Origin: Candidatus Eiseniibacteriota bacterium
GTDB taxonomy: Bacteria > Eisenbacteria > RBG-16-71-46 > CAZAMP01
Direction of reading: 5' to 3'
Assembly (NCBI GenBank): GCA_965224245.1
Contig: OZ245046.1
Location: 672,001-736,000, forward strand
Length of the DNA: 64,000 nt
The translations under genes were made by a program, and so were the position numbers. Under the pieces are notes generated by a model that saw only the letters and a program-made list of their open reading frames with translations, made no database searches and was not told the origin of the DNA. This document shows positions 9,102 through 58,317 of the stretch, one piece after another. Position 1 is the stretch's first letter. Every line of letters starts with the position of its first letter.

Positions 9102-9528
9102 CGGCGCCACGCCGGGTGGGGAACGCCGCTCGATCTCGCGATCCGGTCAGCTTGACGCGTTCACGGCGCCGAGCACCTGCGCCCACTGGGCCTACATGCT
9201 GCTGGTGCGCGCGACACGGCATCGTCGGTGGTTTCAGCGATCTCGCGGTGGTATGCGGGCGACATGCGGCGCGCTGGCGAACCGGTCGTCCTGAGCGGTG
9301 CGGTCTCGGTTGTCGCGTCCGAGGCGGGCAATCGGATCTTTCTCGACGGAGGCTGAGCCCGAACGGCGAGCGCAGAGAGGTTGGACCTGGATCGGTACCC
9401 TGGGCGGGTGTGCGCGACGGCACCGGTCGCCTTCAAGCCGATGCTGCCAGATCTCCGCCATGATGCAGGTCAATCCGTTCGGATCACGTGGTAAGCTCGC
9501 ATGGCGTCGACTCTCGGGAGGTTGGCGA

Positions 9529-15316: not shown

Positions 15317-16198
15317 CTAGCGGAGGATCACGACGCGTGCGGACGTGACCGTCCCCCGGGCCTCGATCTCGACGAGATAGATCCCGCTCGGGAGCCGCCG
15401 GCCGTCCCGATCGTGGGTGTCGAGCACGAACGCGTGCACGCCCGCGCCGACCGATGTCTCGTGCGCGGCCGAGACCCGCCGTCCCGCCGGGTCGATGACC
15501 CGGATGGTCACGTCTCCGGGAGCCGACAGCGCGTAGACGATCTCCGCGCGCGTTCCGATCGCCGGGTTCGGCGTGACCGACAGGACCGACAGCACGTCCG
15601 GTGCGTCGGCGACGTCTCCGACCCCGACCGAGATGCAGTCCGAATCGCCCTCGTCGTAGGCGAGGTCACCGTCGTTGTCCAGCCCCAGACCGTCGCCGTC
15701 CCAGTCCTCGCCGTCGGGTGGCATCGGGGAGCACGGCTCCTTGACGTTCACGTCGTCGCGGAGATAGTGAACGGGACGGACGTCCTCAGGCAGCGGCACC
15801 GGGTCGCCGGGGTGGCAGTTCGCGCAGCGGAGCCCGTTCATGTCGGGCGGCACCCCGCTGGCCGTATGGTGGAGCCGAAGGCCGGCGCCCCAGCCCAGGT
15901 CGGTCCCGTTGTCGCGTCCATGACAGCCGCGGCAGCTCTGGGCCCCCGCGGCGCCGCCCTCGCTCGTGCGCGGATTGTCCCCGACCGACACGTGACAGAG
16001 CAGACACTCGGACGTCATCTGGTCGGGGCCGACGTGAAGGTCGTGGAGTGGACCCCGGCTGATGAATCCCGGATGACAGTCGGCGCATCCGCGCATCCCG
16101 CCCTGAGCCTCGTAGCGTTCGTAGCCGTCGGACGGGGTGGTGACGACCAGGACGAGCAGCAGTCCGGCCGAGACCCCGAGCCTAGAGAGCGCGCGCAC
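15317..16198 (-). CDS. Secreted tetraheme c-type cytochrome with acidic Ca-binding-like loop and FlgD-Ig/T9SS-like CTD
   Basis: Signal peptide. CADCH, CLLCH, CRGCH and CANCH. DWDGDGLGLDNDGD loop. TPNP...DPAGRRV...DGRRLPSGIY CTD. Confidence 0.85.
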   Translation of the reverse strand: MRALSRLGVSAGLLLVLVVTTPSDGYERYEAQGGMRGCADCHPGFISRGPLHDLHVGPDQMTSECLLCHVSVGDNPRTSEGGAAGAQSCRGCHGRDNGTDLGWGAGLRLHHTASGVPPDMNGLRCANCHPGDPVPLPEDVRPVHYLRDDVNVKEPCSPMPPDGEDWDGDGLGLDNDGDLAYDEGDSDCISVGVGDVADAPDVLSVLSVTPNPAIGTRAEIVYALSAPGDVTIRVIDPAGRRVSAAHETSVGAGVHAFVLDTHDRDGRRLPSGIYLVEIEARGTVTSARVVILR

Positions 16199-18778: not shown

Positions 18779-18870
18779 GTGTCGAGTGTACACGAACCGG
18801 GAGTCCGCGATCCACGCGGTAGCCGTGGCGCACCCGTTCGGCGCGGCGAGCGCGGTCGACGGCCGGTGGT

Positions 18871-19551: not shown

Positions 19552-19814
19552 GGGCGATGTCTCCGCGGTGGGCAAACGTCGGTCGCTCGTCGCCCCCCCG
19601 GGTGGGGGCGCTCGCACGCCGAACGAGGGTTCGCATGTCTGCGCGCAGCATACACCGGTGCCCAGGTCCGTGACACGCGGGTCTGCGTTCACTCTCGTGA
19701 CGTTTGATTGCCCTTCACGTGAGGAAGCCGGGGCGCCGCGGGTGCTACGCTCTCTCCGCCGTCCGGACGTCTCCCGGGACGGCCTCGCGGATTCCGCGAT
19801 CGAGGAGCGTTCTC

Positions 19815-21911: not shown

Positions 21912-24158
21912 TCAGCGGCGAACGACGAGCTTCTCGGCGCGCGTGGCCGTTCCCGACTCGAGTCGGTAGAAGTAGACGCCGTCGGTGATCGGACGCCCGT
22001 CGGAGCCCCGACCATCCCAGCGCACGACGTGCGATCCGGCCCGGAGAGACCCGTCCACGAGCACCCGGACCTCGCGGCCCCGCACGTCGAACAGTGCGAG
22101 GCGAATCCGCCCGGGCGCCGGCAACACGAAGTGAATCTGACCGCCGGCCGCGGTCGGATTCGGCGCGACGCGGAGCGAGACCGACGCGAGCTCCGTCCCG
22201 CTCTCCACCCCGATCGTACCGTCGCCGGTGCGGAACTCCCACGACCCGACCGTCGCGAGCAGCTGTCCGTCGACGTCCCGGGCGGCTCGGTCGACGGTGA
22301 CCGCGTACCACGTGAACGGTGCCAGCGGCTCGACGGGCTCCAGCCGCAGTCGCGTGTCGCCATCGAGCCAGCTCACGACGGGGTCGCCGTCGAGCGCCGG
22401 GGCGACGCTGACCGCGGCGAGCGTGGCCGCTCGCTGCATCGGCTGGCTGAACGCGAGCTCGATGACCGCATCGAGCGGCACGTCCTCACCGGCGGGCGAC
22501 CCCTCCACGACCAGCGGATGTCCGGAGATCTCCACCGCATCGCGCCAGATCAGATCGACGAGCGCGTCCCGATCGGCGCCGTACCCACCCCACTGGTAGA
22601 ACGCGTAGGACACCGTGTTTCCCGGGGCCACGATGCCGAAGCGCTTCTCGAAGAAGAGGTTCTCCATGTTCGAGCACGTGCCGCCCGGGGCGATCGGATA
22701 CTCGCCGATCGTGCCCCCGAGCGCCGGCTGGCAGAGGAAGTACGCGGCATCGGGCATCGCGTCCGCGTCCCAGTCATCGGCGATGACGCCGATCGCGTAG
22801 TGAGAGCCACGATCGAACGCCGCCACCCAGTTGCCGTCGACGACGTCGGATGAGAATCCGTGCTCCCCGCCCCATGCCGCGGCATCGTTGGGGAGGAGTC
22901 CTCGGTCGTCGTCCTCCCGATCGCTGCTCCCATCGTCGCCGTACAGCCACTGCTCGCGTCCCCACACGAGATCGAGGTCGTGGGCGACGTCGTCGACGTT
23001 GGTCACGTCGTAACGATGGTGGAGGGACCGGCTCTCGCGGCCGAACGTGACCGTCTTGATCACCTCGAGCACGTTTCGGAGCCCGTAGACCCCGCCGGAC
23101 GGAATGGTGAACGTCATCGATGCGAGGGTCGCGTCGGTCAGCCAGTCGAGCGAGGATCCGGTCCACTTGATGTTGCTGGGATAGGTGCCGGTGCCGTCGT
23201 CGAACGGCGTGTCGTCGACGTGGACGGCCACTCGCTCCATGCAATCGACCGTGTGGGACTCCCCGTCGGCGAGGTCGGTGACCTGGAGGTCGACGACGCA
23301 TCCGGGCCCGTGGGGCGCGGAGAAGTCCTCGCCCAGGATGCCGGTGTGCACGTATCGGTTCCACACGACGTAGCCGTTGCGGAAGTCGCGGCGCGCGATG
23401 TCGGCCGTGTCGTAGCGATCGATCAGCGTGGCACAGAGATCGGACGGGGCATCGAACGTCACCGTGACGCGCCGGACGCTGGCCGATGCGAGGTCGAGCG
23501 TGAACGAGACGACGTTGCCGGGATCGAGCGTCACGTCCGAGACGCCGTCACCGGACACCACGAGGTTCGACACGGCGTTCGCGACCGGGAGGATCGGCAG
23601 CCGAACGCGGCCCGCGCTCTCCACGGAGCTTCGTACGAACGCGAAGTCGCGGATCTCGTGGTGCCAGGTTCCGTCCCCGTTCGGTGTGGCCACGAAGTCG
23701 GCGTACTCGTCCAGCACGTCCGCGAGGTGTGCGGTGGTCAGCCCCGACCAGCGGCGCACGGCGAACGTGGTCAGCGACGGCGACGCGTCCGAGGCGGTCT
23801 CGCCCCGCCGGTGTGCCGTCGCCGTGAGGGACCAGGATCCCGTCGGGCGCGCCTCGCCACGATGACCGTCCACCCGGAAGAGACCGGTGTAGCGGCCGTC
23901 GCCGGCGACGGCGTCGGGGGCGGTGCCGTCGTCGCGGAGGTGGGGGCGAACGGCGGGGTTCAACGGGGAGGAGGCCACGACCGAGTCACAGTCCGCGACC
24001 GGCATGCCGCTCTGGGTCACGTCGGCCGTCACGGCCACCTCGCCGAACCAGGACGTGCGGGATCGATCGAGCGTCGTGACGACCTCGAGGGCGGTGGCCA
24101 GTCCGGGCATCAGGGTGAGCACGATCGAGACGACGGCGGAACGGTGGTGGGCTTCCAC
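21912..24158 (-). CDS. Secreted protein: choice-of-anchor-X-like domain, SbsA/Big_5 Ig domain and FlgD-Ig CTD
   Basis: LRDDG..PD.VAGDGRYTG, P.GEDVP.D.VI...FSQPM and APNP...DVRGREV...WDGRG..G...GVYFY. Confidence 0.8.
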   Translation of the reverse strand: MEAHHRSAVVSIVLTLMPGLATALEVVTTLDRSRTSWFGEVAVTADVTQSGMPVADCDSVVASSPLNPAVRPHLRDDGTAPDAVAGDGRYTGLFRVDGHRGEARPTGSWSLTATAHRRGETASDASPSLTTFAVRRWSGLTTAHLADVLDEYADFVATPNGDGTWHHEIRDFAFVRSSVESAGRVRLPILPVANAVSNLVVSGDGVSDVTLDPGNVVSFTLDLASASVRRVTVTFDAPSDLCATLIDRYDTADIARRDFRNGYVVWNRYVHTGILGEDFSAPHGPGCVVDLQVTDLADGESHTVDCMERVAVHVDDTPFDDGTGTYPSNIKWTGSSLDWLTDATLASMTFTIPSGGVYGLRNVLEVIKTVTFGRESRSLHHRYDVTNVDDVAHDLDLVWGREQWLYGDDGSSDREDDDRGLLPNDAAAWGGEHGFSSDVVDGNWVAAFDRGSHYAIGVIADDWDADAMPDAAYFLCQPALGGTIGEYPIAPGGTCSNMENLFFEKRFGIVAPGNTVSYAFYQWGGYGADRDALVDLIWRDAVEISGHPLVVEGSPAGEDVPLDAVIELAFSQPMQRAATLAAVSVAPALDGDPVVSWLDGDTRLRLEPVEPLAPFTWYAVTVDRAARDVDGQLLATVGSWEFRTGDGTIGVESGTELASVSLRVAPNPTAAGGQIHFVLPAPGRIRLALFDVRGREVRVLVDGSLRAGSHVVRWDGRGSDGRPITDGVYFYRLESGTATRAEKLVVRR

Positions 24159-24478
24159 GAGTTATCCCCCCGGCGCTCGTGTGGCAGCTCCCGTCGAGAC
24201 GACGAGTCTAGCATCCAGGCGACGGTCGATTCGAGCCGAGTCGCAGCCCGGGCCGCCCATCGGGGCTCGATGACTCCGGACCACTGGCTGATCGCCATCG
24301 CCGATCGAACTCGTCCGAAGCGAGTCGACGCTCGACCGACGCTAGAACGCTCGGCGGCAACAGGTAATACGTAGGACCCGAAGCCGCGGCCGGCGGCGGC
24401 GATCGCCGGAGAGCCGTCGGGAGGATCCGTCGAACGCCCTCCGGGATGGGGCACCGCCGGCGGGCCGGGATGGAGCGA

Positions 24479-24515: not shown

Positions 24516-27161
24516 CTACTTCGTGAGGATCATCTTCCGGGTCTCGGCCGAGGCTCCGGCACGCAGCGTGTAGAAGTAGACGCCGGACGCGACCGGGTGG
24601 CCGTCGTTTCCGAGACCGTCCCACACGACCGTGTGCGGACCGCCATCGGCCCACGACTGGAAGTCGCGCACCTCACGCCCTGATCCGTCGAAGATCGCCA
24701 GCCGGAACGCGCCGGCCGTCGGAAGCGTGAAGCCGATCGTGGTGGTGGGGTTGAACGGGTTCGGTCGGTTCTGGGCCAGCGAGAACACAGCGGCCCCGGG
24801 GGCCTCGGTCCGGTACGCGATGTCGTCCCACATGTCGCGAATCACGCCCGCGGCGACCAGCGTCGCCTCGTTGAGGGCCTCGGCGATGTCCTTGGCCGTC
24901 GCGTAGTCCGCGTCGGTCGAGCCCGGATCGTTGATCAGATCCGCGACGTCCTGGAGCGCCTGGCTCACCGTGAACGGCGGAACATCCTCCGATGCAGCGT
25001 CGAAGGAGAGGATCTTCCCCGACGCCACGTTCAGGAGAAGCGCCAGGTAGTGCTGCTTGGCACGGTCCAGCATGTCGTGGCTGTTGCGTGCGGTGAGCGT
25101 GGATCGGATCGTCTCCAGATCGAGCGGCACGTCTCCGCCGTCCACCATGAACGTCACGCCCTCGACCGCGATCGCGCTCAGCTCGTTGTCGTAGAAGTGG
25201 CTGTACAGAGCCTCCGGATACGTCGTGCGCATGTCGGTCTCGCTCTCCTGAGCATTGCCGCGGCCGAGCACGTAGACGTTGGCCTGGTGCTTCCAGTAGC
25301 CCATGCTGCGGGCCACCCCGGTCGGGGCCAGGCAGCCGAGGGCGAAGTCGGCGACCTGATCGCTCGTCACCGTGAGCGCGATGTGCGCATCGGTGGGAGA
25401 GATCGCGTGGAAGCCGAGGGGCAGGACACACGTGATCTCGATGTCCGTCTCGTACCGGATGTCGTCGAACGCGTAGTGGCCGTCCGCGTCGGTGGTCGTC
25501 GTCGTGTACTCGCCTCCGGCGTCGAGGCCGATCGTGACGCCGGCGACCGAGGCTCCACAGTCGTTCGACACCGTGCCCGAGACGTCGAACACGCAGCCGA
25601 TCGCGAAGTCGACGACGACGTCGTCGGTGACCTCGTACAGCGAGAGCGTGCCCGTGGTCGGGGTGTCCGCCACGAAGCCGTCGGGAAGGACGACGCTGAC
25701 GTCGTAGTCGACGGAGCCCGGGAGCGCGATGAACGCGTACGCGCCGTTCGCGTCGGTCGACGTCGAGTACATGCCGCCGTCCGAGCCCGCCACCTCGATC
25801 GTGATGCCGCTCTCGGCGCCTCCGCAGTCCGACGTCACCGTCCCCGTGATGTCGATCACGGCCCATCCGCTCTCGAGCGCGTACGGCAGGCCGTCGGCCT
25901 GGCCGCAGCCGATGGAGTACGGAACGTCGACGAAGCCGTCGAGGTCCGCATCGGGACCGGTCCACCCGGTCCAGTAGTTGCCGCCCACCGGGGCGGGCAG
26001 GTGCAGGATCGCCGTGTTCGAGCCGCAGATCACCGTGGGGGCGGCGCCGACGTCGGACACGAAGTCGTTGTTGTAGATCTCGTGCTGGTTGTTCGAGCGA
26101 AGCTGGATCGCGCTCGTGGTGTGTGAGCGGAAGCGGTTCTCGGTGACGATGTACTTCGCGAGATCGATGATGGAGATCGGGAGACCGTTCACGTTCACAC
26201 GGTTGTCGTTGATCGTGACCACGCCTGAGCACAGGCTGTGGACGATGCCGAGTCCGCCGGTGATGTCGTTCCCGAGGATCTGTCCGCTCCCGCAGTTGAT
26301 CGAGAACACTCCGTCGCCGTTCGCAGAGAGCGTGTTGTCCTGGACGAGCACGTTGTTGGAGCCGATGAAGCGGATGGCGTCGAAGAGGCCGCCGGTGACG
26401 GTCGACGACGTCACCTGCATCGCATGTGCCCCGTTGCCGTAGACCCCGTAGCGCGGGCTCGTGACGGCGCTGGTCTCGACCGAGTGCCCGGTGCCGCCGA
26501 ACGCGTAGACGCCGTACTGGCCCCCGGTGACGTCCGCGTTTCGGATGGTCACGTTCTGGCTGCCGACGATGTACACGCCGTAGGTGGCTCCGGTGACGAT
26601 CTGAAAGCCGCCGCCGTCCAGCGTGATGCCGTTGCCCATGATCTGGACGGTCTCGAACACGTCCTCGGTCAGGACGGCCGTCTTCGTCACGGAGTCCCAG
26701 GTCCCCGGCACGTGCGTTCCCTGCGGCGTCCAGCCGGAGTCGCCGAGGTACCACGTGGACTGGTCGGGCTTGATCAGGATCGAGTGGGGTGCGGTCAGGT
26801 CCTGCACCCAGGTGAGGGATCCGGTCTCGTCGACCACGACCTCCAGCACGTTGCGGAGATCGTCTTCCGATCGGTACAGCGACGCGCCCGCGGGCAGGCC
26901 CGTGACCGTGATCTGAGTGGACGCGACCTCCGTGCTCGCGTCCACCGCCAGCTCGAGCGCGTCGGACGCCAGCGCCTGGATGGCGGCCTGGATGGGGTCG
27001 GTCGTGGTGATCGTGAACGATGCATCATCGAGCGAGACGGTGAATTGCGTGTCGTTGCCGTAGGACGAGCCGGGCGCCATCGGCGGCTCGGTCTGGGCGT
27101 TCGCGCTCGCCGCGGTCAGGACGAGACAGAGCACGCACGACAGGTGGGCGACACGAGACAT
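24516..27161 (-). CDS. Secreted NosD-like right-handed beta-helix protein with two carboxypeptidase-regulatory/Cna-B-like domains and FlgD-Ig CTD
   Basis: Signal peptide, ITLDGGGF, PbH1-like repeats, GGNYW...D.D.DGF.D.PY, two TTD.(N/D)G.Y.F units, GYWKHQ, QNRPNPFNP...WDG.GNDG..VASGVYFY. Confidence 0.85.
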   Translation of the reverse strand: MSRVAHLSCVLCLVLTAASANAQTEPPMAPGSSYGNDTQFTVSLDDASFTITTTDPIQAAIQALASDALELAVDASTEVASTQITVTGLPAGASLYRSEDDLRNVLEVVVDETGSLTWVQDLTAPHSILIKPDQSTWYLGDSGWTPQGTHVPGTWDSVTKTAVLTEDVFETVQIMGNGITLDGGGFQIVTGATYGVYIVGSQNVTIRNADVTGGQYGVYAFGGTGHSVETSAVTSPRYGVYGNGAHAMQVTSSTVTGGLFDAIRFIGSNNVLVQDNTLSANGDGVFSINCGSGQILGNDITGGLGIVHSLCSGVVTINDNRVNVNGLPISIIDLAKYIVTENRFRSHTTSAIQLRSNNQHEIYNNDFVSDVGAAPTVICGSNTAILHLPAPVGGNYWTGWTGPDADLDGFVDVPYSIGCGQADGLPYALESGWAVIDITGTVTSDCGGAESGITIEVAGSDGGMYSTSTDANGAYAFIALPGSVDYDVSVVLPDGFVADTPTTGTLSLYEVTDDVVVDFAIGCVFDVSGTVSNDCGASVAGVTIGLDAGGEYTTTTTDADGHYAFDDIRYETDIEITCVLPLGFHAISPTDAHIALTVTSDQVADFALGCLAPTGVARSMGYWKHQANVYVLGRGNAQESETDMRTTYPEALYSHFYDNELSAIAVEGVTFMVDGGDVPLDLETIRSTLTARNSHDMLDRAKQHYLALLLNVASGKILSFDAASEDVPPFTVSQALQDVADLINDPGSTDADYATAKDIAEALNEATLVAAGVIRDMWDDIAYRTEAPGAAVFSLAQNRPNPFNPTTTIGFTLPTAGAFRLAIFDGSGREVRDFQSWADGGPHTVVWDGLGNDGHPVASGVYFYTLRAGASAETRKMILTK

Positions 27162-27190
27162 GGTGATTCCTCCCCCGAATTGGAACGGAC

Positions 27191-27300
27191 GGATGACTCG
27201 TCACCGAATCATCCGGTAGAACGTCGCATGAACCCCGGTCCCGACGACGGCGCGTGCCGCACGCGCGGACGTGGGAGACCGACGTGAGTCAGATGACTCG
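27191..27300. promoter_or_regulatory. Two palindromic sites sharing GATGACTCG, upstream of the beta-helix gene
   Basis: GGATGACTCG-tcac-CGAATCATCC (27191-27214) and GAGTCA-ga-TGACTC (27286-27299). Confidence 0.35.
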
Positions 27301-31443: not shown

Positions 31444-33633
31444 TCACCGCACGTGCACGATCCGCGTTCGGAGCTCCCCGCGACCCACGAAGTACACGCC
31501 GTTGGGTACGCGAATCCCCTGGTGCAGCGAGAGGTAGCTCCAGCGGCCGCGACCGCGTCCCGGGCCCACCGGATCGATGCGGACGATCGCCACGCGCCGG
31601 CCGTCCGCCGCGTACACCGGCAGTGAGGGGGGGAGAGGTCCCGGCGTCTCCACCGACAGCGTCGTCCAGCCCGTGCCCACGGTCGGGAACGCCCGGAGCA
31701 CGCCGGCCGTTGGCGGCGGCGTCTGGGGCCGGAGGTCCCTGCGCGTCGCCCGTTCGATCAGGTTTCGCGTCACCTGCTGCACCTCGGGATCCACGGAGAG
31801 GCCCCAGCACCAGCCCGTCGTCCCGCCGCTGAACAGGATCCCGCCGGCCGGCAGCGTCGCGATCACCATGAGCGCGTTTCCGGGCTCGTCGGTGTAGTAG
31901 TTGTCGCATGCGCTGTGGCCCAGCACGTGAGCGGGAGGCGTCCGGGGATCGGACCAGGCCAGCTCGGGCACCCCATCGGTGAACGTGAGCGGGCCGCCAT
32001 CGACCTCGTACCCGACGATGGCCTGTGCTCTGCCGAACGTGTCGCCGTCGCGGAGACCGGTGCCGTCGAAGACCCAGTGGCCGGCGTCGGTGACGGCATA
32101 ACCGCCGTAGCCGTCGAACCAGTCGAACTCGGTGTCGTCGGGGATCGCCGACCCGCTGGACCAGTTCACGTTGCCGCCATGGCGCCAGCTGAGGGCCGTG
32201 GCGAGCTCGGGGGGGCGCGGCGTCGGGAGCTCGTCCCACAGCCCGGTGACCTGCTTCGGATCGACGAGATGGTAAGGGTCCTGGTCGACCCGGTTCTTGT
32301 AGCACACGAGTCGTTCGCTGGACCCCAGGTCCACCGGATCGCGGTCGCCGGCGAGGCGGGTCTGCCACCACATCGTGTTTCCGGAGAAGCACAGGAGCGA
32401 TCCGCCGTTCGCGAGGAACGACTCGAGCGTGTTCCGCATCCGGCCGGTCCAGTACTCGCTGTGCCAGGTCAGAACGATCGCGCGATAGTGACGGAAGATG
32501 GTGTCGTCGTGGTGGAGATCGTGGTCGGAGAACACCCCCGCCCGGATGCCTTCGCGGTGGAGCCATCGCACCAGGTGCACGGGTGTGTGATAGAAGCCCA
32601 GGTAGCGGTGCTGGGTGGGGCGCTCGAAGCTGACCTCGTGGGTCCGGGTGGGCGGTGAGCCGTAGAAGTTCTTGCCGCCCCAGGCGTTGTAGGCCTGGTC
32701 GGTGTGCGTTGGGATGACCACGGCGAGGTCGCCATCGCGGCCGTTCCCCGAGACGATCATCGTCTCCCACGTCGAGCGCTCGCCGTCGTCGACCACCACG
32801 GTGTAGACCCCCGACGGCCAGTCGTCGCCCACGGGAATGGACACGCTCACCGGCCAGGCGCATCCGGCGCTGGAGACGTTCTCCGGGACCGGCTGCTCGA
32901 CGAGGCCGCGCATCGTGCCGCGCCACACGACCCGGGGTGCCTCGCCCTCGTACCGCACCTCGACGGCGGCCGTGGGGCGGGTGGCGGACGCGTGAAGAGC
33001 GACCGGTGTTCCGGCGGTCACCGATGTCGGCCGGAGATAGAAATCCAGCGTCTCCAGCTCTCCGCCGAGCCGGAGGCGCACGTCGTCCAGCCAGAATCGC
33101 CCCTGGCGCAGGACGCGAGAGGCGTGGAGACCGAACGACAGGTAGCACCGCCCGGCGCCATCACCGAGCCGCGGGTTGAAGCGGACCCGGTACGTGCGGA
33201 ACGACGGCGCGAGCCGGCCCACGAGCTGCAAGAGCGGCGCCCGACCGGCCCACTCCCCGCTCGTCGTCTGATAGATGACGTCCACTTGAAACGGGGAGTC
33301 GGGCATCTCCACCTTCAACGTGAAGGTGGCCTCGTAGACCGCATTCATCGAAGGCAGCTGGACCGAGGGGGAGGCCAGACGGTAGTGGAGCGTGACCGGC
33401 GGAGCGTCCACGCGCACCGACGGTGCCTCGGCTCCGTACACCCGCGGCGCCCGTGAGACCTGGAAGTAGTCGACGGCCGCGTCGGGCTCCTTCCGCCAGC
33501 CCGGCGCCAGTCCGGTCTCGGGGTCGGCATCGACGAACGACTCGTTCAGGAGGACCTGTGCCGACAGGGGCTCGGTCGCGATGGTGACGGAGAGGATCAG
33601 GACACCCACGAGGCACGTAGAGGGCGAGCGCAT
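31444..33633 (-). CDS. Secreted N,N-dimethylformamidase large-subunit-like protein with N-terminal beta-sandwich and degenerate CTD
   Basis: T.QAYN.WGGK..Y, VSFERP, HSEYW..MR, FSGNT.WWQ, GYEVDG and FSGGT..W. Signal peptide from MRSPST. ADGRRV...PNGVYFV tail. Confidence 0.8.
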   Translation of the reverse strand: MRSPSTCLVGVLILSVTIATEPLSAQVLLNESFVDADPETGLAPGWRKEPDAAVDYFQVSRAPRVYGAEAPSVRVDAPPVTLHYRLASPSVQLPSMNAVYEATFTLKVEMPDSPFQVDVIYQTTSGEWAGRAPLLQLVGRLAPSFRTYRVRFNPRLGDGAGRCYLSFGLHASRVLRQGRFWLDDVRLRLGGELETLDFYLRPTSVTAGTPVALHASATRPTAAVEVRYEGEAPRVVWRGTMRGLVEQPVPENVSSAGCAWPVSVSIPVGDDWPSGVYTVVVDDGERSTWETMIVSGNGRDGDLAVVIPTHTDQAYNAWGGKNFYGSPPTRTHEVSFERPTQHRYLGFYHTPVHLVRWLHREGIRAGVFSDHDLHHDDTIFRHYRAIVLTWHSEYWTGRMRNTLESFLANGGSLLCFSGNTMWWQTRLAGDRDPVDLGSSERLVCYKNRVDQDPYHLVDPKQVTGLWDELPTPRPPELATALSWRHGGNVNWSSGSAIPDDTEFDWFDGYGGYAVTDAGHWVFDGTGLRDGDTFGRAQAIVGYEVDGGPLTFTDGVPELAWSDPRTPPAHVLGHSACDNYYTDEPGNALMVIATLPAGGILFSGGTTGWCWGLSVDPEVQQVTRNLIERATRRDLRPQTPPPTAGVLRAFPTVGTGWTTLSVETPGPLPPSLPVYAADGRRVAIVRIDPVGPGRGRGRWSYLSLHQGIRVPNGVYFVGRGELRTRIVHVR

Positions 33634-36685: not shown

Positions 36686-37468
36686 TCATCGAGGCAGCAC
36701 GGTGAGTCGCGCCGTCTCGTTTCCAGACGCTCGGATCAGGCGGGCGAAGTAGACGCCGGGCGCCCAGCGCACGGCCCGATGCGAGCATCGCCGGCGGACT
36801 CGTCACGCCGGAGACAGGGACCGACACGGGGTCCTGGAAGACCAGCCCGAGATAGAAATGGCGGTCGTCCCGGTGTCGAAGCCGTCGGCGTCGATCACGA
36901 GCGCACCCGACGTGAACGTGAACGTGTGGATTCCCGCTTCCAGGACCCCGGAGTCGCCGAACGTGACCATACCCGGCTCGGAGATCCCCCCGGAGAACAC
37001 CGTTCCCGACGGACCGTCGATCCGGAGGTGCGCATTGGCCGCGCCGGCGGTGTTCGCGAAGCCGGAGACGTTGAACTCGGTGAGCGCCGACACGTCGAAG
37101 CTCGCGGTGATGCTGGCGTCCATCCCGGCCTGCGCGGTGGCGTCCGGGTTCTCGGCGTCGCGGATCGCGTGCGCGTTCGTGGATCCGGTCATCAGGATCA
37201 CCTCGGTTCCGACGTCGGAGAACTGCGAGGCGAGCGCGTACGCGGAGGATCCCTCGAGCAGGACCTCCGAATCGTCGAAGAGGTCGAGCGGCCCGGCGAC
37301 GTCCTCGACGGACGTATCGCCGTCGGCGAGGAACTCGATGCCGTCGCTGACCGCGGTCGACGTGCCGACACGCAGGCGGCGTGCTGGACGAACGACGTTC
37401 GAGCCCGATCTCGTGCTTCCGACGCGTCGGCGAAGAGGCGGGACTGAGCGTAACGCCATCGATGTCAT
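36686..37468 (-). pseudogene. Frameshifted, internally deleted remnant of a CTD-bearing secreted beta-sandwich protein
   Basis: The main frame ends early. Shifted segments read FYLGLVFQDPVSVP..MLASGRAL and then APGVYFARLIRASGNETARLTVLPR*. No signal peptide. Confidence 0.55.
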
Positions 37469-37669
37469 GGTGTTGTGGCTCGGATGTCACGTGCTCCAGG
37501 GCGAGCTCGCCGCGGTGGGATTCGGATCGCGGGAGCGCCCGCCGGTCGCTCGCGCCACCCGCGCCGCTGCGGAGGCTGCGCCCTCCGGCCGCCGGGCTCC
37601 GTGATACCATCGTTGCTCGAACGGCGTTCCGTCTCTCGTCACTCTCCTCCCAGCCCGGAGCAGCACATC

Positions 37670-39898
37670 ATGCGCGTTCCCGCGTTCGCAGTCCTCTCGG
37701 TGGTCCTCTCCGCGCCCGCGGCCGCGGGCATCGTCATCAACGAGCTCCTCCCGAATCCCGCCGGCGACGACGTCGGAACCGAGCGAGTCGAGATCTACAA
37801 CGACGGGACCGACCCGATCGACGTGACCGGATGGGCCATCGACGACGCGGCGACGATCGACGACGTCAGCGTGCGCGCGCGCCTCCCGGAGGACTTCGAC
37901 ACGTCGGCGTGTTCGAGCAGTCCCGTGATCGGGCCCGGCGAGTTCCGTCTCGTCAAGGGGACCTCGACCGCGGCCTGGCTGAACAACTCCGGTGACGACG
38001 TCTACCTGATCAGCGACCGGACGGCCACGCCGACCGTCGTCGACGTGGTCACGTACCCGAGCGCGAGCTCCGAGGTGGACAACGTGTGGGCCTGCGTCCC
38101 CGACGGATCGCTGAACTTCGACTGGCGGGCGCAGAGCCTCTGCGGATCGAACGGGGGCAGCGGCAACGCGACCGCTCCCGACGCGATCACCGACCTCGGG
38201 GCCGGACCCGGGGCGTTCCCCGGCGAGATCGTGCTCACCTGGACGGCCACCGGAGACGACGGCTCCGCCGGCACGGCGAGCGAGTACGTCATCAAGGTGT
38301 CGGATGCGCCGATCGACGCGGGCAGCTTCGCCGCCGCGACCGACCTCGACTTCTGGCTGCACGAGCCGTTGCCGCAGGAAGCGGGTACGCCGGAGTCGCT
38401 GGTTGTGTCCGGGTTCGACCCGGCCGAGACGTACTTCTTCGCGATCACGGCGGTCGATGACGCGCTCAACGAGAGCCCCGTGTCGAACTCGCCCGGCACG
38501 ATGCCGGCCCCGGGCACGCTCCTCGACACGGACTTCGGTCTCTCCACCTACTTCGGCAACCTCCACTCGCACACGGGCTACTCCGACGGGGAGGACGCAC
38601 CGGCCGACGCATACGAGTACGCACGCTACGATGCGCAGACGCCGCTCGACTTCCTGGCGGTGACCGATCACAACCACTCCGGCGCCGGTCCGATGAGCCC
38701 GGCGCTCTATCAGGCCGGCCTCGCCGCCGCGGCCGCGGCGAACGAGGACGGCGGCTTCGTGGCCATCTACGGGCAGGAGTTCGGGCTGTCGGGGAACGGA
38801 CACGCCAACGTGTTCGAGTCGCCGGTGCTCTTCGGGTGGGAGGGTGGCAACTACGACGTCTTCGTGGCCGAGGGCGACTATGCGGCGCTCTACACCGCGG
38901 CCGTGAGCAACCCGCCGGCGGTGGGCCCGCCGTTGATTCTCTGGTGTCATCCGCAGTCGGGCGACTTCGACGGACTGGCGGTGACCGCCGACTCGCCGTC
39001 GGTCGTGAAGCTCATCTGTCTCGTGAACGGCCCGGCGTTCTCGACCGTGCAGGACGAGTCGGATGTCGGCAACACGGGGTTCGACGACACGTTCCAGGAC
39101 GCGCTTCGTCTCGGGCATCGGGTCTCCCCGACCGGCGACCAGGACAACCACAACGCGAACTGGGGAGCGTCCACGGAGAGCCGGACCGCGGTGCTCGCAT
39201 CCGAGCTCACGAAGTCGGCCATCCTGGAGGCGCTTCACGACGGACACAACTACGCGACGCAGGACCACGACGTCGTCGTGGGGCTCTCGGCCGACGGGCA
39301 CATGATGGGAGAGGCCTTCGTCCGATCCTCCGGGATCCGACTGGCGGTCGAGGTGTCCGACCCCGATCCCGGTGACGGGGTCGATCTGATCGAGCTGTAC
39401 CGGGGTGTGACCGGCGCATCGAACGCGACGCGAGTGGCGTTCAACGTGGGAAACACGCGCTTCGACTGGCGCGAGACCGAGTCCTTCGACCCGGGGACCG
39501 AGGTCCACTACTACGCGCGCATCCGTCAGAGCGACACCCAGCTCATCTGGACCGCGCCGGTCTACGTGACCTACGACGCGGCGCTGGCGACGTCGGATCC
39601 GGACCACGGTCCGGCCGCGAGGCCGCTCCTGGCCGTGCACCCGAATCCGACCGCAGGTGGTACGTCGGTCCAGTTCACGCTGCCGGATGACGACCGCATC
39701 GTGTCGCTGGACGTGCTGGACGTGTCGGGACGGCGGATCCGGCGGCTCGTGGGTGGCGCGCTGCCCCGTGGCGCATACGGCGTCGACTGGGACGGCCGCA
39801 CGCGGTCCGGGACACCGGTCTCACCGGGCATCTACTTCGTCCGTCTCGCATCGTCAGATGGACACACGGCAACGCAACGCGTGACTGTGCTTCGCTGA
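37670..39898 (+). CDS. Secreted lamin-tail + FN3-like + PHP (CehA/McbA-like) metallohydrolase with FlgD-Ig CTD
   Basis: IVINELLPNP..E.VEIYN, LTWTA.GDD, GNLHSHT.YSDG, VTDHNH, GQE, GHAN, D.DNH and HPNP...DVSGRRIR...WDGR..SG...PGIYF. Confidence 0.85.
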   Translation: MRVPAFAVLSVVLSAPAAAGIVINELLPNPAGDDVGTERVEIYNDGTDPIDVTGWAIDDAATIDDVSVRARLPEDFDTSACSSSPVIGPGEFRLVKGTSTAAWLNNSGDDVYLISDRTATPTVVDVVTYPSASSEVDNVWACVPDGSLNFDWRAQSLCGSNGGSGNATAPDAITDLGAGPGAFPGEIVLTWTATGDDGSAGTASEYVIKVSDAPIDAGSFAAATDLDFWLHEPLPQEAGTPESLVVSGFDPAETYFFAITAVDDALNESPVSNSPGTMPAPGTLLDTDFGLSTYFGNLHSHTGYSDGEDAPADAYEYARYDAQTPLDFLAVTDHNHSGAGPMSPALYQAGLAAAAAANEDGGFVAIYGQEFGLSGNGHANVFESPVLFGWEGGNYDVFVAEGDYAALYTAAVSNPPAVGPPLILWCHPQSGDFDGLAVTADSPSVVKLICLVNGPAFSTVQDESDVGNTGFDDTFQDALRLGHRVSPTGDQDNHNANWGASTESRTAVLASELTKSAILEALHDGHNYATQDHDVVVGLSADGHMMGEAFVRSSGIRLAVEVSDPDPGDGVDLIELYRGVTGASNATRVAFNVGNTRFDWRETESFDPGTEVHYYARIRQSDTQLIWTAPVYVTYDAALATSDPDHGPAARPLLAVHPNPTAGGTSVQFTLPDDDRIVSLDVLDVSGRRIRRLVGGALPRGAYGVDWDGRTRSGTPVSPGIYFVRLASSDGHTATQRVTVLR

Positions 39899-40075
39899 TC
39901 GCAGGGCCGGAACGGCCCCACCGCTACCCATACCTGACCGTCGTCCTGCCCGAGCAAGAGCGTAGGCCCGGTTTCCAACCGTGGCCGCATTCGAGTGCAC
40001 CGGTCGTCCGATCTGTGGCATGTTTGCCGCGTATCGGTTTCTGGAGATCCGAGCTGGGCCTCGAGGAGGACTGTC

Positions 40076-40771
40076 ATGACACGATCGATGTCGAAGACGG
40101 TGTGCCGGAGGGCATGCGCCGCCCTCACGGTGGTGATCCTGTGGGCGCCGGGCGCTCACGCGTACGAGCAGTGGTCGCAGAACGGCGGCGACGCGACCAA
40201 CTGCGGGACCTGCCACGGCGACTTCCGGAACGCCGACTACACGTCGCCGAGCGATGGCATGAACTGGGGAAACCTGCACAACCTTCACCGCTCGACGATG
40301 CTCAGCGGCGACTGTGACGTGTGTCACTCCGGCAGCAGTCGGTTTCCGGTCCTGATCGACGTCTCGAACGGGGGAGACGGGCTCGCTGGCATCTCCTGCA
40401 TGGGCTGCCACGGACGCGCGGCCGACGACACGCCGGAGAACCCGGAGTTCCCGAACGGCGCCGGCGCCGGGCTGCGCCAGCATCACCACAACGCCGGAGC
40501 CACCGTGTGCGCCGATTGCCACGACGATGCGGACCCGGCGAACTACGTTCCGGTGGGCGAGCACGTTCTGCCCGAGTACTACGCGAACCCGGGCAACAAT
40601 CACCCCGCGATGCCGCAGAGTCCGTGCAACGGCTCGGGGACCGAGGACTTCGCCGGGAGCGCGGACGGTCTGGACAACGACGGCGACCTGGACTACGACG
40701 CGACCGACGCCGACTGCTCCACGCCCGTGCGGGAGACCACGTGGGGTCGGATCCGAGCGTCCTATCGGTAG
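40076..40771 (+). CDS. Secreted tetraheme c-type cytochrome with acidic loop and short 'TTWGRIRASYR' tail; paralog of 15317-16198
   Basis: GAGGAGG RBS, signal peptide ending AHA, CGTCH, CDVCH, CMGCH, CADCH and DGLDNDGDLDYD. Confidence 0.88.
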   Translation: MTRSMSKTVCRRACAALTVVILWAPGAHAYEQWSQNGGDATNCGTCHGDFRNADYTSPSDGMNWGNLHNLHRSTMLSGDCDVCHSGSSRFPVLIDVSNGGDGLAGISCMGCHGRAADDTPENPEFPNGAGAGLRQHHHNAGATVCADCHDDADPANYVPVGEHVLPEYYANPGNNHPAMPQSPCNGSGTEDFAGSADGLDNDGDLDYDATDADCSTPVRETTWGRIRASYR

Positions 40772-54130: not shown

Positions 54131-56344
54131 ATGTCTCGCGTCTCGCGGCGATCGTTCATCAAGGTCGGGGGGGCCGCATCCGCCGGTGTCGCGATGTCCG
54201 GGCTCACCAGCAACTGGTGGGGGCTCGATCCCGATCGCGTCCACGATCCGTCAACCGACGGAGATCGGGTGGTGCCGACGTTCTGTGAGCTGTGCTTCTG
54301 GAAGTGCGGCGTTCTCGCTCACGTCACGAACGGTCGGGTCACGAAGATCGTGGGCAACCCCGCGCACCCGCTCTCACGCGGGCGGCTCTGTCCCCGCGGG
54401 ACCGGCGGCGTGGGGCTTCTGTACGACCCCGATCGCCTCCGGCAGCCGCTGCTCCGGGTCTCGAAACGCGGCTCCGACGAGTTCGAGCCGGTCAGCTGGG
54501 ACACCGCGCTCGATCACGTGGCCACGAACCTGGCCAGGATCCGGGACGAGCACGGTCCCGAGGCGGTCGCACTCTACAGCCACGGCTACGGCGGCTCGTG
54601 GTTCAAGCACCTCATGCATGCGTACGGGTCGCCGAACGTCGCCGCGCCGTCCTACGCGCAGTGCCGTGGACCGCGCGAGGTCGGCTTTCAGCTCACGTTC
54701 GGCTCCGGGGTCGGATCGCCGGAGAACACGGACATGCCCAACGCCCGCGTCATCACGCTGATCGGCTCGCATCTCGGTGAGAACATGCACAACACGCAGG
54801 TGCAGGATCTCGCCGAAGCCCTCGACCGGGGCGCGGAGCTGATCGTCGTCGATCCGCGGTTCTCGACCGCGGCCGGGAAGGCGCGCCACTGGCTGCCGAT
54901 CAAGCCCGGAACCGACATCGCGCTCCTTCTGGCGTGGATGCACGTGATCATCGAGGAGAAGCTCTACGCGCGCGACTACGTCGAGCGCTACGCGACGGGG
55001 TTCGATGCGCTGCGTGCCCACGTGCGCGACAAGACGCCGGAGTGGGCGTTCACCCGGACGACCATTCCGCCCGAGACGATCGTGGCCACCGCGCGCCTGA
55101 TGGCCGGGGCGAGCCCGGCGTCGCTCGTCCACCCCGGGCGTCACGTCACGTGGTACGGCGACGACACCCAGCGCAGCCGGGCCATCGCGATCCTGAACGC
55201 GCTGCTCGGCGCGTGGGGACATCGTGGCGGCTTCGTCCTGCCGACGGCGATGTCGATCCCGCCGTATCCGTACGCGCATCCAGGTGTGAGGATGCCCGCG
55301 AGCGCGGACATGCCGAGGGATACGGTCTACCCGATGGCCGGCGCCACGCTGGCGTCCGGTCTCTGTGACGCATCGATCCCCGGAACGGCCGACTACGACA
55401 TCCGGTCCTGGATCGTCTACGGCACCAACCTGATCCAGTCACTTCCCGATCCCCGGAAAACGCGCCGGGCGCTGGCCGAGCTCGACTTCGTGGTCGCGAT
55501 CGACGTGCTGCCGATGGAGATCGTCGGCTGGGCCGACGTGGTGCTGCCCGAGGCCACGTATCTCGAGCGCTGTGACGAAGTGCACGCGCCGCCGTTCCGG
55601 ACGCCGTTCCTCGCGGTGCGTCAGCCCGTGGTCGAGCCGATGTACGACACGAGGCCCGGCTGGCGGATCGCGCGGGAGATCGGCACACGGCTCGGTCTCG
55701 ACGAGTACTTCCCGTGGACCGACAGCGTCGAGTATGCCAAGCGTCGAGTGTCGGATGCGGGTCTCGACTGCGAGACGCTGATGACGACGGGCGTGATCGA
55801 GGGGCCTCCATCGCCGATCACGATCGAGGACGGCCTCGAGCCCTCGTTCGCCACGCCATCGGGCAAGATCGAGCTCTACTCACGACAGCTCGCCGACTCG
55901 GGCTTCGATCCGATGCCGGTCTATCGGGCCCCGGAGGAGCCGCCGCCGGGGTCGTTCCGGCTGCTCTTCGGACGGGCGCCGATGCACACGTTCGGCCGCA
56001 CCACCAACAACCGCTTCCTGTCGGAGGTTCACGACGAAAACGAGGTGTGGGTAAACGCCCGGATCGCCCGCGAGCGCGGGATCGCCGACCGTGAGCGGGT
56101 CACCCTCGTCAACCAGGACGGAGTGCGCTCCGCCCCGATCCGCGTACGTGCCACCGAGCGGATCCGACCGGACTGCGTCTACATGGTTCATGGGTATGGT
56201 CACACCGCGAAGGGTCTCCGCTTCGCGCGCGGCCGGGGGGCGAGCGACGCCGAGCTCGTCACCCGCGTCGCCGTGGATCCGATCATGGGTGGCACCGGGA
56301 TGAACGTGAACGTCGTCACGATCGAAAAGGGGGCGCCGGCATGA
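54131..56344 (+). CDS. psrA: Polysulfide/thiosulfate reductase molybdopterin subunit (PsrA/PhsA-like), Tat-exported
   Basis: SRRSFIK Tat motif, CELCFWKC...CPRG FS0 cluster, SYAQCRG (Cys Mo ligand), HLGEN, HPGR, ADVVLP..TYLER and PSGKIELYS. Confidence 0.85.
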   Translation: MSRVSRRSFIKVGGAASAGVAMSGLTSNWWGLDPDRVHDPSTDGDRVVPTFCELCFWKCGVLAHVTNGRVTKIVGNPAHPLSRGRLCPRGTGGVGLLYDPDRLRQPLLRVSKRGSDEFEPVSWDTALDHVATNLARIRDEHGPEAVALYSHGYGGSWFKHLMHAYGSPNVAAPSYAQCRGPREVGFQLTFGSGVGSPENTDMPNARVITLIGSHLGENMHNTQVQDLAEALDRGAELIVVDPRFSTAAGKARHWLPIKPGTDIALLLAWMHVIIEEKLYARDYVERYATGFDALRAHVRDKTPEWAFTRTTIPPETIVATARLMAGASPASLVHPGRHVTWYGDDTQRSRAIAILNALLGAWGHRGGFVLPTAMSIPPYPYAHPGVRMPASADMPRDTVYPMAGATLASGLCDASIPGTADYDIRSWIVYGTNLIQSLPDPRKTRRALAELDFVVAIDVLPMEIVGWADVVLPEATYLERCDEVHAPPFRTPFLAVRQPVVEPMYDTRPGWRIAREIGTRLGLDEYFPWTDSVEYAKRRVSDAGLDCETLMTTGVIEGPPSPITIEDGLEPSFATPSGKIELYSRQLADSGFDPMPVYRAPEEPPPGSFRLLFGRAPMHTFGRTTNNRFLSEVHDENEVWVNARIARERGIADRERVTLVNQDGVRSAPIRVRATERIRPDCVYMVHGYGHTAKGLRFARGRGASDAELVTRVAVDPIMGGTGMNVNVVTIEKGAPA

Positions 56345-56883
56345 GCGCGAAACGCTACGCGATGGCCGTCGACACGCGCCTCTGTGTCGGCTGCAGCGCC
56401 TGCGTGCTGGCCTGCAAGGCGGAGAACGACGTCCCCGATGGTTACTGCCGGGACTGGATCGTCGAGGAGGTGCGCGGAACGTATCCGGACCTCCGCGCCG
56501 AGATCCGGTCCGAGCGCTGCAATCACTGCAGCCGTCCGCCCTGTGTGTCGTCGTGCCCCACGGGGGCGAGCCACCTGAGCGACGGCGGGGTGGTGCTGGT
56601 CACGCACGACAGGTGCACCGGATGCAAGGCATGCATCGCGTCGTGTCCGTACGATGCGCGGTTCGTGCATCCTGACGGATACGTCGACAAGTGCACGTTC
56701 TGTCTGCACCGCGTGCGCCACGGCGAGGAGCCGGCCTGCGTTGCGGTGTGTCCCACGCGATGTCTGACGTTCGGCGATCTGAACGATCCGGACTCGCGCC
56801 TCTCCATGCTCCTTCGGACGCGAGAGCACACGGTCAATCATCCCGAGACCGGGTGCGACCCCAACGTCTACTTCCTGGTGTGA
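56341..56883 (+). CDS. psrB: 4Fe-4S electron-transfer subunit (PsrB/NrfC-like)
   Basis: CVGCSACVLAC, CNHCSRPPCVSSCP, CTGCKACIASCP and CTFC...CVAVCP. Confidence 0.88.
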   Translation: MSAKRYAMAVDTRLCVGCSACVLACKAENDVPDGYCRDWIVEEVRGTYPDLRAEIRSERCNHCSRPPCVSSCPTGASHLSDGGVVLVTHDRCTGCKACIASCPYDARFVHPDGYVDKCTFCLHRVRHGEEPACVAVCPTRCLTFGDLNDPDSRLSMLLRTREHTVNHPETGCDPNVYFLV

Positions 56884-56896
56884 GGAGGAGAGAGTC

Positions 56897-57811
56897 ATGT
56901 CGCTCGCATCGGTCCCCGTCGAGATCCTGCACGGGAGACACAATCCTCACATCGATCCGGTGCTCCACGTCTGGGGCTGGGAGATTCCCGTCTACCTGTT
57001 CCTCGGTGGACTGGCTGCCGGGCTCATCGTGCTGTCGGCGATCCTCGCCCGACGGCCGGACGCCGGGGAGCTGCCGGCGCGTATCCGGCGCATGCCGCTG
57101 GTCGCGCTCGGGCTCCTGAGCGTTGGAATGGGGGCGCTGCTCCTCGATCTCGAGTATCCGTCCCACGTACTCCGCTTCTTCGCGAGCTTCCAGCCGGCGT
57201 CTCCGATGTCGTGGGGGTCGTGGATCCTCGTGCTCGTGTACCCGTCCGCCCTGGCGCTGGCCTGGCGACTCGAGCGCCGGAAGCCCGTCGGGTCCGGCGT
57301 TGCGATGCTGGCCGTTGCCGCGGGGGTCGCGCTCGGCATCTACACCGGCGTCCTTCTCGGCGCGCTCGGTGCGCGGCCGCTCTGGAACTCGGCGGTGCTG
57401 GGCCCGCTGTTCCTGGTCTCGGGGCTGTCGACCGGCGCCGCGCTGATGCTCCTCGCCCGTCCCGGTCCTCGCGCGGCGGCACGCCTGACCCGCTGGGACA
57501 CCGGCCTCATCGTGCTGGAGCTCGTCCTGATCGGGGTGTTCGTCATCGGCCTGGCGTCGGGTGGACGCGCGGCCGCGCACTCCCTCGCGCTGATTCTCGG
57601 CGGACCCTACACGCCGATCTTCTGGGCGCTCGTGGTGATCGCGGGACTCCTGGTTCCGCTCCTCGTGAACGGGCTCGAGATCAGCCACCGGGTCCCGGTC
57701 AACGCGGTGGCGCCGATCCTCGTGCTCGTCGGCGGCCTGGCGCTCCGGTGGGTGCTCGTCGTCGCCGGGCAGCACTCGACGGTGGGTCTGTCGGCTCTCG
57801 TGGGGAGGTGA
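56897..57811 (+). CDS. psrC: NrfD/PsrC-family membrane anchor
   Basis: WGWEIPVYLFLGGLAAG, SPMSWGSWIL, YTGVLL...RPLWN and LVGGLALR. Confidence 0.88.
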   Translation: MSLASVPVEILHGRHNPHIDPVLHVWGWEIPVYLFLGGLAAGLIVLSAILARRPDAGELPARIRRMPLVALGLLSVGMGALLLDLEYPSHVLRFFASFQPASPMSWGSWILVLVYPSALALAWRLERRKPVGSGVAMLAVAAGVALGIYTGVLLGALGARPLWNSAVLGPLFLVSGLSTGAALMLLARPGPRAAARLTRWDTGLIVLELVLIGVFVIGLASGGRAAAHSLALILGGPYTPIFWALVVIAGLLVPLLVNGLEISHRVPVNAVAPILVLVGGLALRWVLVVAGQHSTVGLSALVGR

Positions 57812-57831
57812 CACCGTGGACGTGAAACTAT

Positions 57832-58317
57832 GTGGCCGGCGTCGTGCTGGGGCTCGTGCTGCTGACCTCGTTCCTCGTGCTGGGGATGGGGCTCGGCTCA
57901 TCGGGCGCCGTGACCCGACTCGGCGTCGGCATCTCTCATCTGATCGCTCCGGACGCCGTCGAGAGCAACGCGTACCTGTCGCGGTACGTCGGTCCGGGAA
58001 AGTCGCACGTGCTCGATGACTGGCTCGTGTTCCTGGTGCTCGGCGTGTTCCTGGGCGGTGCCGTGGGTGCGCTGAGCGGGGGCCGGCTCCGCCGGGAGGT
58101 CGTGCGCGGACCGCGAATGTCGGCGCTCGGCCGCATCCTGCTGGCCGTCGCGGGCGGCGTGCTGATGGGCGTGGCCGCTCGCTTCGCCCGCGGCTGCACC
58201 TCGGGACAGGCGCTCTCGGGGGGAGCCCTGCTGTCCGTGGGGTCGTGGGTGTTCATGCTCGCGGTGTTCGCCGGCGGCTATCTCCTGGCGCCGGTGGTGC
58301 GGAGGCAATGGCGATGA
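57832..58317 (+). CDS. YeeE/YedE (TsuA-like) sulfur-compound transporter, first half; 5' end apparently disrupted
   Basis: YVAGVVLGL, GLGSSG and GG.LMG.AARFARGCTSGQALSG. The RBS-linked start at 57816 is out of frame and the in-frame GTG at 57808 hits TGA at 57823. Confidence 0.75.
   Translation: MAGVVLGLVLLTSFLVLGMGLGSSGAVTRLGVGISHLIAPDAVESNAYLSRYVGPGKSHVLDDWLVFLVLGVFLGGAVGALSGGRLRREVVRGPRMSALGRILLAVAGGVLMGVAARFARGCTSGQALSGGALLSVGSWVFMLAVFAGGYLLAPVVRRQWR

Follow-up and report, generated by a model that had tools for sequence, protein, structure and literature searches.

The window analysed here, a stretch of 64,000 nucleotides from the genome of a Candidatus Eiseniibacteriota bacterium, encodes two tetrahaem cytochromes that share a core and carry different C-terminal extensions. 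One continues into a C-terminal domain (CTD) of the T9SS type A class and the other into a tail of 17 residues, which raises the question whether the short tail is itself a sorting or anchoring signal and how it relates to the CTD in whose place it stands. The features concerned are the following:

40063..40069, + strand: Shine-Dalgarno-like GAGGAGG, 6 nt 5' of the ATG, read from the sequence
40076-40771, + strand: tetrahaem cytochrome ORF of 231 aa with a predicted signal peptide
40076..40162, + strand: Sec signal peptide predicted from the sequence, residues 1-29, with AHA at its end
40163..40624, + strand: tetrahaem c core, CxxCH at 40202, 40313, 40397 and 40508
40625..40717, + strand: acidic DxDxDG loop between the conserved C184 and C214, where the shared cargo ends
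40718..40771, + strand: 17-aa TWG tail and stop, consisting of Thr-Pro-Val, a spacer and a predicted amphipathic helix (residues 223-230)
15635..16198, - strand: paralogous tetrahaem core, residues 1-188, with a predicted signal peptide
15317..15634, - strand: 105-aa T9SS type A / FlgD-Ig CTD with a Ser-Val-Gly-Val linker at its start

A tetrahaem core shared by two distant paralogs

In the tail-bearing protein the CxxCH motifs stand at residues 43, 80, 108 and 145 and the last cysteine is residue 214. Among 87 homologs all four motifs, as well as A29 at the end of the signal peptide, are at least 90% conserved, and with CxxCH motifs behind a signal peptide the protein qualifies as a multihaem cytochrome c. 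Candidate distal haem ligands in the same 87 sequences are H68, H71 and H137, which are invariant, and M75 and H176, which are nearly so; with these conserved residues all four haems could be six-coordinate, which would suit electron transfer better than catalysis. The Pfam families PF14537 and PF14522 match the core barely above cut-off, and NCBIfam contains no model for the tetrahaem family, its best matches lying far under cut-off. The acidic loop, matched weakly and under cut-off by NF033662, is likely closed by a disulfide between C184 and C214 and likely binds calcium. A structure model of the cytochrome has a pLDDT of 87, with 63-70 in the tail region, where a helix is placed at residues 223-230. 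The core gave neither a sequence match nor a fold match in the PDB, the missing fold match being weak evidence for a haem protein modelled without haem, and a search of the ESM Atlas reached a best score of 0.78, which is lead level only.

The core resembles the small multihaem cytochromes c3/c7 in holding four CxxCH motifs within about 200 residues, with His and Met for six-coordinate haems. It differs from them and from extracellular tetrahaem cytochromes such as OmcE in its acidic loop with the probable disulfide, in its mostly stand-alone genes (another multihaem ORF lies near the core in only 6 of 30 long loci) and in the lack of a fold match; in particular, no solved structure of OmcE-type nanowire subunits was matched in sequence or, on the weak evidence noted above, in fold. 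Elsewhere in the window, at 54131-59492, we read a twin-arginine molybdopterin oxidoreductase-like gene, a ferredoxin, membrane subunits and then two membrane proteins, a cluster resembling polysulfide/thiosulfate reductase. A cluster of five multihaem cytochromes, which have 6-14 CxxCH motifs apiece and might supply electrons upstream, lies 3 kb past the window end (C1:739069-748122 of the source genome).

The source genome (G000; 6.94 Mb, 97% complete) contains only two copies of the cytochrome, both in the window. In a BLASTP alignment residues 15-214 of the tail form pair with residues 11-188 of the 293-aa paralog at 34% identity (E 8e-21); a MAFFT alignment gives 39%. The alignment ends exactly at residue 214, as the first-pass annotation of this DNA had claimed for the end of homology, and every shared motif that it listed occurs in both proteins. 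It was also right about the 17 residues of the tail, whereas the CTD that it put at about 95 aa measures 105. The two genes are distant paralogs rather than a recent sister pair, the CTD form standing on a long outlier branch. The C-terminus of the paralog is a T9SS CTD by both models applied, PF13860 (29.9 bits, cut-off 27) and TIGR04183 (31.6 bits, cut-off 23).

Seven further CTD genes lie in the window at 9295-12009, 16328-19315, 19701-21818, 21912-24161, 24516-27200, 31444-33609 and 37454-39898; among them is the gene directly upstream of 40076-40771, which encodes an LTD plus CehA/McbA metallohydrolase protein. Nine ORFs of the genome combine at least two CxxCH motifs with a T9SS-type CTD (C1:244984, 420370, 687317, 972636, 2907169, 4394966, 4724807, 6051528 and 6432750), which suggests that T9SS export of haem proteins may be routine in this organism.

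Alternative ends on one core

To survey what follows the core in other organisms, we took the 120 homologs listed out of 572 and cut 117 of them at the last cysteine, dropping three. The ends of these 117 comprise 71 CTDs, 32 tails, eight MYXO-type ends, five dockerin-like ends and one other. Support for the kinds of end differs: eight of nine ends tested exceed the cut-off of MYXO-CTERM and two of two that of TIGR04183, the dockerin matches stay under cut-off, and PEP-CTERM-like (L012, L043) and GlyGly-like (L065) ends were judged by eye only. Among 80 genome loci spread over many phyla, we saw PKD/Ig arrays, additional haems or other short motifs behind the core, while in the near tail-less homologs L029, L030, L055 and L064 just 5-12 unrelated residues remain. 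Since the ends on the same core are so diverse or nearly absent, the tail is a portable module and not part of the cytochrome fold, and homologs that do without any tail contradict a structural role in that fold. From its ends the family would typically be surface-sorted. Two further kinds of terminus were seen along the way: the cytochrome ORFs in L051, L053 and L078 end in a short F-x-DGFESGD-type motif, possibly another uncatalogued sorting tag, and the homologs at L041:2-754 and L061:1599-3413 end in the recurrent terminus H-L-x-H-G-D-x-x-G-x-C.

Homologs with named sources come from Candidatus Krumholzibacteriia (tail forms P0011 and P0032), Candidatus Eisenbacteria (CTD form P0084) and Candidatus Latescibacterota. 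Tail and CTD forms are mixed in quick trees, which require the TWG label to change 9-12 times, with 2-3 changes forced by starred branches. Repeated independent swaps were nevertheless not established, because the AU test does not reject a single TWG clade (p 0.58) and the constrained tree scored higher; only at least one swap among close homologs is therefore supported.

The same exchange occurs on other cargos. Twelve tail families have CTD-bearing homologs in the source genome, and in seven of these the swap falls at the junction. The cytochrome pair itself lies under the threshold of the genome-wide swap script and is counted in addition, giving eight families in all.

A C-terminal tail on 60 cargo families

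The tail follows the pattern P-x4-[ST]W[GSAT]x[ILVM][KR]xx[YF]. We built a position matrix from 72 terminal seeds, scanned all ORF positions of the source genome and kept scores of at least 18. Of the resulting 126 matches, 122 lie no more than 30 residues from the stop and four further inside; removal of one likely false match leaves a set of 121 ORFs, including a few near-duplicates or uncalled ORFs, which fall into 60 cargo families. The segment from P to K is present in 115 of the 121. The regular expression proposed in the first pass matches beyond chance, 22 times in 59,329 six-frame ORFs and always no more than 14 residues from the stop, but it recalls just 21 of the 121 tails, because S, A or T often follows the Trp and the upstream Pro belongs to the motif. 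Between 7 and 25 residues are allowed after the Trp, most tails ending 7-10 residues behind it. From the Trp to the end the mean hydrophobic moment is 0.36 and the mean net charge +1.9, the basic residues being dispersed.

By a crude and permissive heuristic, signal peptides are predicted for 82 of 106 called tail genes against 1081 of 3938 others (a background of 27%), and for 289 of 431 CTD genes, so the enrichment asked of a sorting signal is present. A custom HMM finds 465 CTD ORFs in the genome, and tail and CTD never occur on one ORF (0/122). The cargos differ in size: none of the 106 tail proteins reaches 600 aa and 82 are shorter than 300 aa, whereas 225 of 429 CTD cargos measure 600 aa or more. 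One uncalled tail ORF of 1404 codons from stop to stop may be an exception. Recognisable tail cargos include choice-of-anchor V and X, DNRLRE, Omp28, LTD, M43, vWA and beta-helix domains. No Pfam or NCBIfam model covers the tail in 40 representatives, drawn from 40 of the 60 families, or in 40076-40771 itself.

A 42-base pattern detects tails in 140 of 151 genomes of the phylum, with 0-2 matches for reversed-pattern controls. Searched against 1.84 billion representatives, a method which favours short and fragmentary proteins, the tail profile gave 392 matches; among the best 150, 148 are terminal and none is 600 aa or longer. One of the proteins found, P0126, is lipoprotein-like, measures 272 aa and has four tandem tail copies at its end, and P0134 and P0172 carry one internal and one terminal copy each. 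A literature search, in which most subscription papers and supplements lay outside coverage, returned no description of the tail. The accessible text of PMC3909097, which reports TIGR04183 domains in Poribacteria and leaves their pathway unresolved, does not contain the motif, and the accessible part of PMC4454575 holds nothing bearing on it.

Relation to known sorting signals

In the T9SS, type A CTDs are read by PorV, moved by SprA and cut by PorU. The tail shares with such CTDs (TIGR04183/PF18962, here PF13860 FlgD-Ig-like) its position after the cargo, its cargo classes and its genomes, it is interchangeable with them on one core, and its first triplet resembles the CTD linker. Most of its cargos have a predicted Sec signal, and SprA, PorV and PorU are encoded in the genome. 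In contrast, the tail is a predicted helix of 17 aa, while the accessible parts of the literature describe T9SS CTDs as beta-sandwiches of 70-100 aa (PMC11285876) or three-stranded sheets of 40-55 aa (PMC11969387); a TIGR04183/PF18962 domain is lacking, and motifs B, D (GxY) and E (the terminal basic strand) are absent from the tail profile. At the cut site, where a small +1 and an aliphatic +2 residue belong, T/V-P-V of the tail aligns with x-[AGS]-V, but the +1 residue is Pro.

With the tripartite signals (MYXO-CTERM TIGR03901, PEP-CTERM, GlyGly-CTERM, LPXTG) the tail has in common that it is C-terminal, multi-copy and built around at least three near-invariant residues, and that it occurs on unrelated cargos whose homologs carry other signals or none, MYXO-CTERM itself being found on the same core. 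Attributes 1, 2, 3, 6, 7 and 8 of a list of sorting-signal properties, as given in the accessible part of that work (bioRxiv 10.1101/2023.06.07.544157), apply to it. None of 121 tails reaches a mean hydropathy of 1.6 over 15 aa that would mark a transmembrane helix (maximum 1.03), and a terminal cluster of 2-5 basic residues or a run of Arg is absent from them. The intramembrane-protease mechanism therefore does not apply.

Domains with many alternative C-terminal ends go by the name of choice-of-anchor. The cytochrome core is comparable to such NCBIfam families (e.g. NF041895, NF041940), and two named domains of this kind carry the tail in the source genome; the tetrahaem family itself is without an NCBIfam model, and the tail is no anchor catalogued there. 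Taken by its features, the tail is real, behaves as a C-terminal sorting signal would, is so far undescribed and belongs neither to the tripartite signals nor to the T9SS CTDs.

Association with the T9SS

The source genome encodes SprA, PorU and six PorV/PorQ-family barrels, all over cut-off. A search for GldM gave no match, but its control matched nowhere, and GldK gave weak sub-cut-off matches only. In the phylum sample SprA was found in 57 of 57 relatives, PorV in 33 of 33 and FlgD-type CTDs in 31 of 31. As these components are, like the tails, near-universal, profiling within the phylum cannot link them, and the search for a cognate translocon suggested in the first pass yielded an association of tail and SprA across phyla while nothing co-varies within the phylum. 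The cross-phylum comparison used 50 cytochrome-bearing genomes, from 50 of the 80 loci. In the 43 genomes lacking a SprA match, 14 tail-pattern matches stand against 13 for the control; of the seven with SprA, five hold tails above chance and two, from Gemmatimonadota and Glassbacteria, do not. Negatives from incomplete metagenome-assembled genomes are unreliable; a Flavobacteriales bin and a bin with the CTD form of the cytochrome gave no SprA match. Because the five tail-positive genomes are probably kin and the bins incomplete, the result is an association and no test of dependence.

A closer connection to the CTD appears at its linker. In a metagenome scan, a TWG-like motif stands in frame directly before the CTD sequence NYPNPFNP in 68 of 80 loci, which were read out of at least 125 stretches matched, and the form [ST]WGx[ILV]K accounts for 52 among the 80 loci listed; as the search pattern selected this layout, it shows existence and not frequency. 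The CTDs behind the motif are presumably Poribacteria-type. In the seven junction pairs of the source genome T/V-P-V of the tail aligns with x-[AGS]-V at the start of the CTD linker, a likeness of only three residues. About 17 residues before xPNP, x-[AGS]-V occurs in 177 of 347 CTDs against 20% by background, with a regular expression picked after a first one had shown no enrichment (52/347 against 12%). The triplet also resembles the published PorU cut consensus PT/GI with its small +1 residue, as given in the accessible text of PMC11969387, and Pro at +1 is found in 5 of 71 CTD linkers of the cytochrome family.

Several candidate leads were followed and set aside. Family f6, with small genomes (examples are G012, G019, G034, G077 and G114), keeps SprA and has 43-74 CTD matches in the six genomes counted and about 1-6 tail-pattern matches. 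It was considered as a case of natural tail loss, since a strict pattern gave zero in 11 of 29 genomes, yet real tails are kept there, on three cargo families including LTD and choice-of-anchor V, and the family therefore cannot reveal a co-lost reader. Counts of NPFNP as a proxy for CTDs proved misleading, family f2 having 0-1 NPFNP but 39-125 FlgD_ig matches. A 365-aa ORF beside the LTD-tail gene was not found with the query used in any of 33 genomes (33/33) and was dropped as a tail reader. A complex prediction for the PorV of the PorU operon with the tail, which scored 0.00 against a mark of 0.32 and had controls that were not folded, speaks neither for nor against this PorV as reader.

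Two loci deserve separate mention. At C1:3204225-3208679 (L157; also L158 and L159) a cluster begins with a double-LTD protein of 562 aa and ends with an LTD tail protein; the two genes lie up to about 9 kb apart in two f6 genomes, where LTD is among the few tail cargos kept. The gene at C1:2563660-2566875 (L083:5664-8876, - strand) encodes a protein of 1071 aa in which a short stretch is SprA-like and no Pfam family is matched. It lies in the porU-porV cluster, adjoins an Omp85/POTRA gene and is essentially single-copy in 44 of 44 relatives, and the predicted barrel is a candidate for a second translocon.

Discussion

That the tail is a module with some function in targeting or docking appears almost certain, and it is likely an undescribed address label of the cell envelope. 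The claim that the signal is portable and serves sorting or anchoring has good support, since the three checks by which the first pass would have refuted it all came out in its favour: signal peptides are enriched, seven further families swap, and tail-less homologs exist. Equivalence to the CTD, one of the options raised in the first pass, is less supported in view of the missing CTD fold and motifs, the small cargos, the Pro at +1 and the fusions of tail and CTD seen elsewhere.

As to mechanism, we tentatively favour, at a little short of probable, an uncleaved helical docking label that is read by a T9SS-associated envelope protein and holds or displays small cargo at the outer membrane, while CTD paralogs would be cut by PorU and covalently attached. 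The cytochrome would be exported by Sec and receive its haems in the periplasm, to judge from the signal peptide, the CxxCH motifs and a maturation-type WWD protein encoded in the genome. Its tail is predicted to fold into a short amphipathic helix, which would then dock on the putative receptor, and the protein may end up surface-associated as a stand-alone electron carrier, as the other sorting signals on the same core would indicate. The tail may be a helical part of the T9SS signal region that small proteins use on its own, and the receptor a T9SS-associated envelope protein by analogy with type B shuttles. For type B cargo, distinct shuttles lead to distinct destinations, according to the accessible part of PMC12618676. 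The two cytochromes of the window may be bound for different places. Having no membrane helix or beta-sandwich and a Pro where PorU prefers a small residue, the tail is likely an uncleaved docking helix; the Pro at +1, the tolerated extensions and the tandem copies of P0126 favour docking over sortase attachment. Against a T9SS reading, the published signals of this system, even the short ones, are beta-stranded with motifs B, D and E in the accessible text of PMC11969387, and the tail-less homologs, in which the cytochrome need not be anchored, count against docking.

A docking peptide could also be imagined for a scaffold outside the T9SS, in the S-layer, periplasm or cell wall and in the style of dockerin and cohesin, with the T9SS co-occurrence due to shared ancestry. 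The invariant Trp and spaced Pro imply sequence-specific binding, tandem and internal copies exist, the same core has dockerin-like ends in 5 of 117 listed homologs, and there are SprA-bearing genomes that have no tails. We consider this unlikely all the same, since the motif elsewhere stands behind the linker Val and ahead of the first CTD strand, within the part which PorU would cut off, and since surface docking of large exports should produce proteins with both tail and CTD, of which there are none in 122. It is quite improbable that the tail works with no protein reader at all, as an amphipathic helix that binds lipid or LPS and so ties small proteins to one face of a membrane: the predicted helix with its moment and positive charge and the lack of a transmembrane stretch would suit such a role, but lipid binding usually needs a less strict sequence than the fixed P-x5-W spacing and near-invariant Lys kept across 60 unrelated families, and the four copies of P0126 would be needless in a lipid-anchored protein.

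A further reading takes the tail for a cleaved T9SS signal of minimal size and in every respect the equal of the CTD, cut by PorU before the Pro so that the cargo is joined to a surface glycan. Here the swap point coincides with the start of the CTD linker in eight families, and Prevotella intermedia cleaves CTDs of 40-55 aa with a tolerant +1 residue, as the accessible text of PMC11969387 reports. The tail nevertheless offers no beta-strands, lacks motifs B, D and E and places Pro at +1, and the size limit on its cargo implies non-equivalence, so we judge full equivalence quite improbable as well. By position alone, the tail could also belong to the structure of the cytochrome or be left over, without function, from a CTD that was truncated; this is hardly tenable for a sequence found on 60 unrelated families and kept in nearly all genomes of the phylum with controls near zero, terminal in nearly all of the best matches and replaced by unrelated ends of 5-12 aa in homologs.

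Returning to the docking helix, a bolder form of the T9SS connection, which we regard as rather unlikely, is that the 17-residue helix constitutes a further class of T9SS signal and by itself takes small proteins that are folded and loaded with cofactor, this tetrahaem cytochrome among them, over the outer membrane of uncultured FCB-related phyla by a motor-less T9SS, possibly through the half-size SprA-like barrel of 1071 aa. Such a route would explain the cargo limit of about 600 aa.

The cytochrome points to T9SS-type export of haem-loaded cytochromes, for which no paper was found in a literature search with most subscription papers and supplements outside its coverage, and it is a ready test substrate, as one haem-stainable core comes in natural CTD, tail, MYXO-CTERM and tail-less versions. 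If the reading of the tail is correct, it would be a soluble and very short C-terminal address signal, unlike the beta-sandwich signals of the T9SS and the membrane-spanning sortase tags. In uncultured phyla that are abundant, as much as 2-3% of the proteome would carry it, and the 42-base pattern would annotate thousands of hypothetical proteins as envelope cargo.
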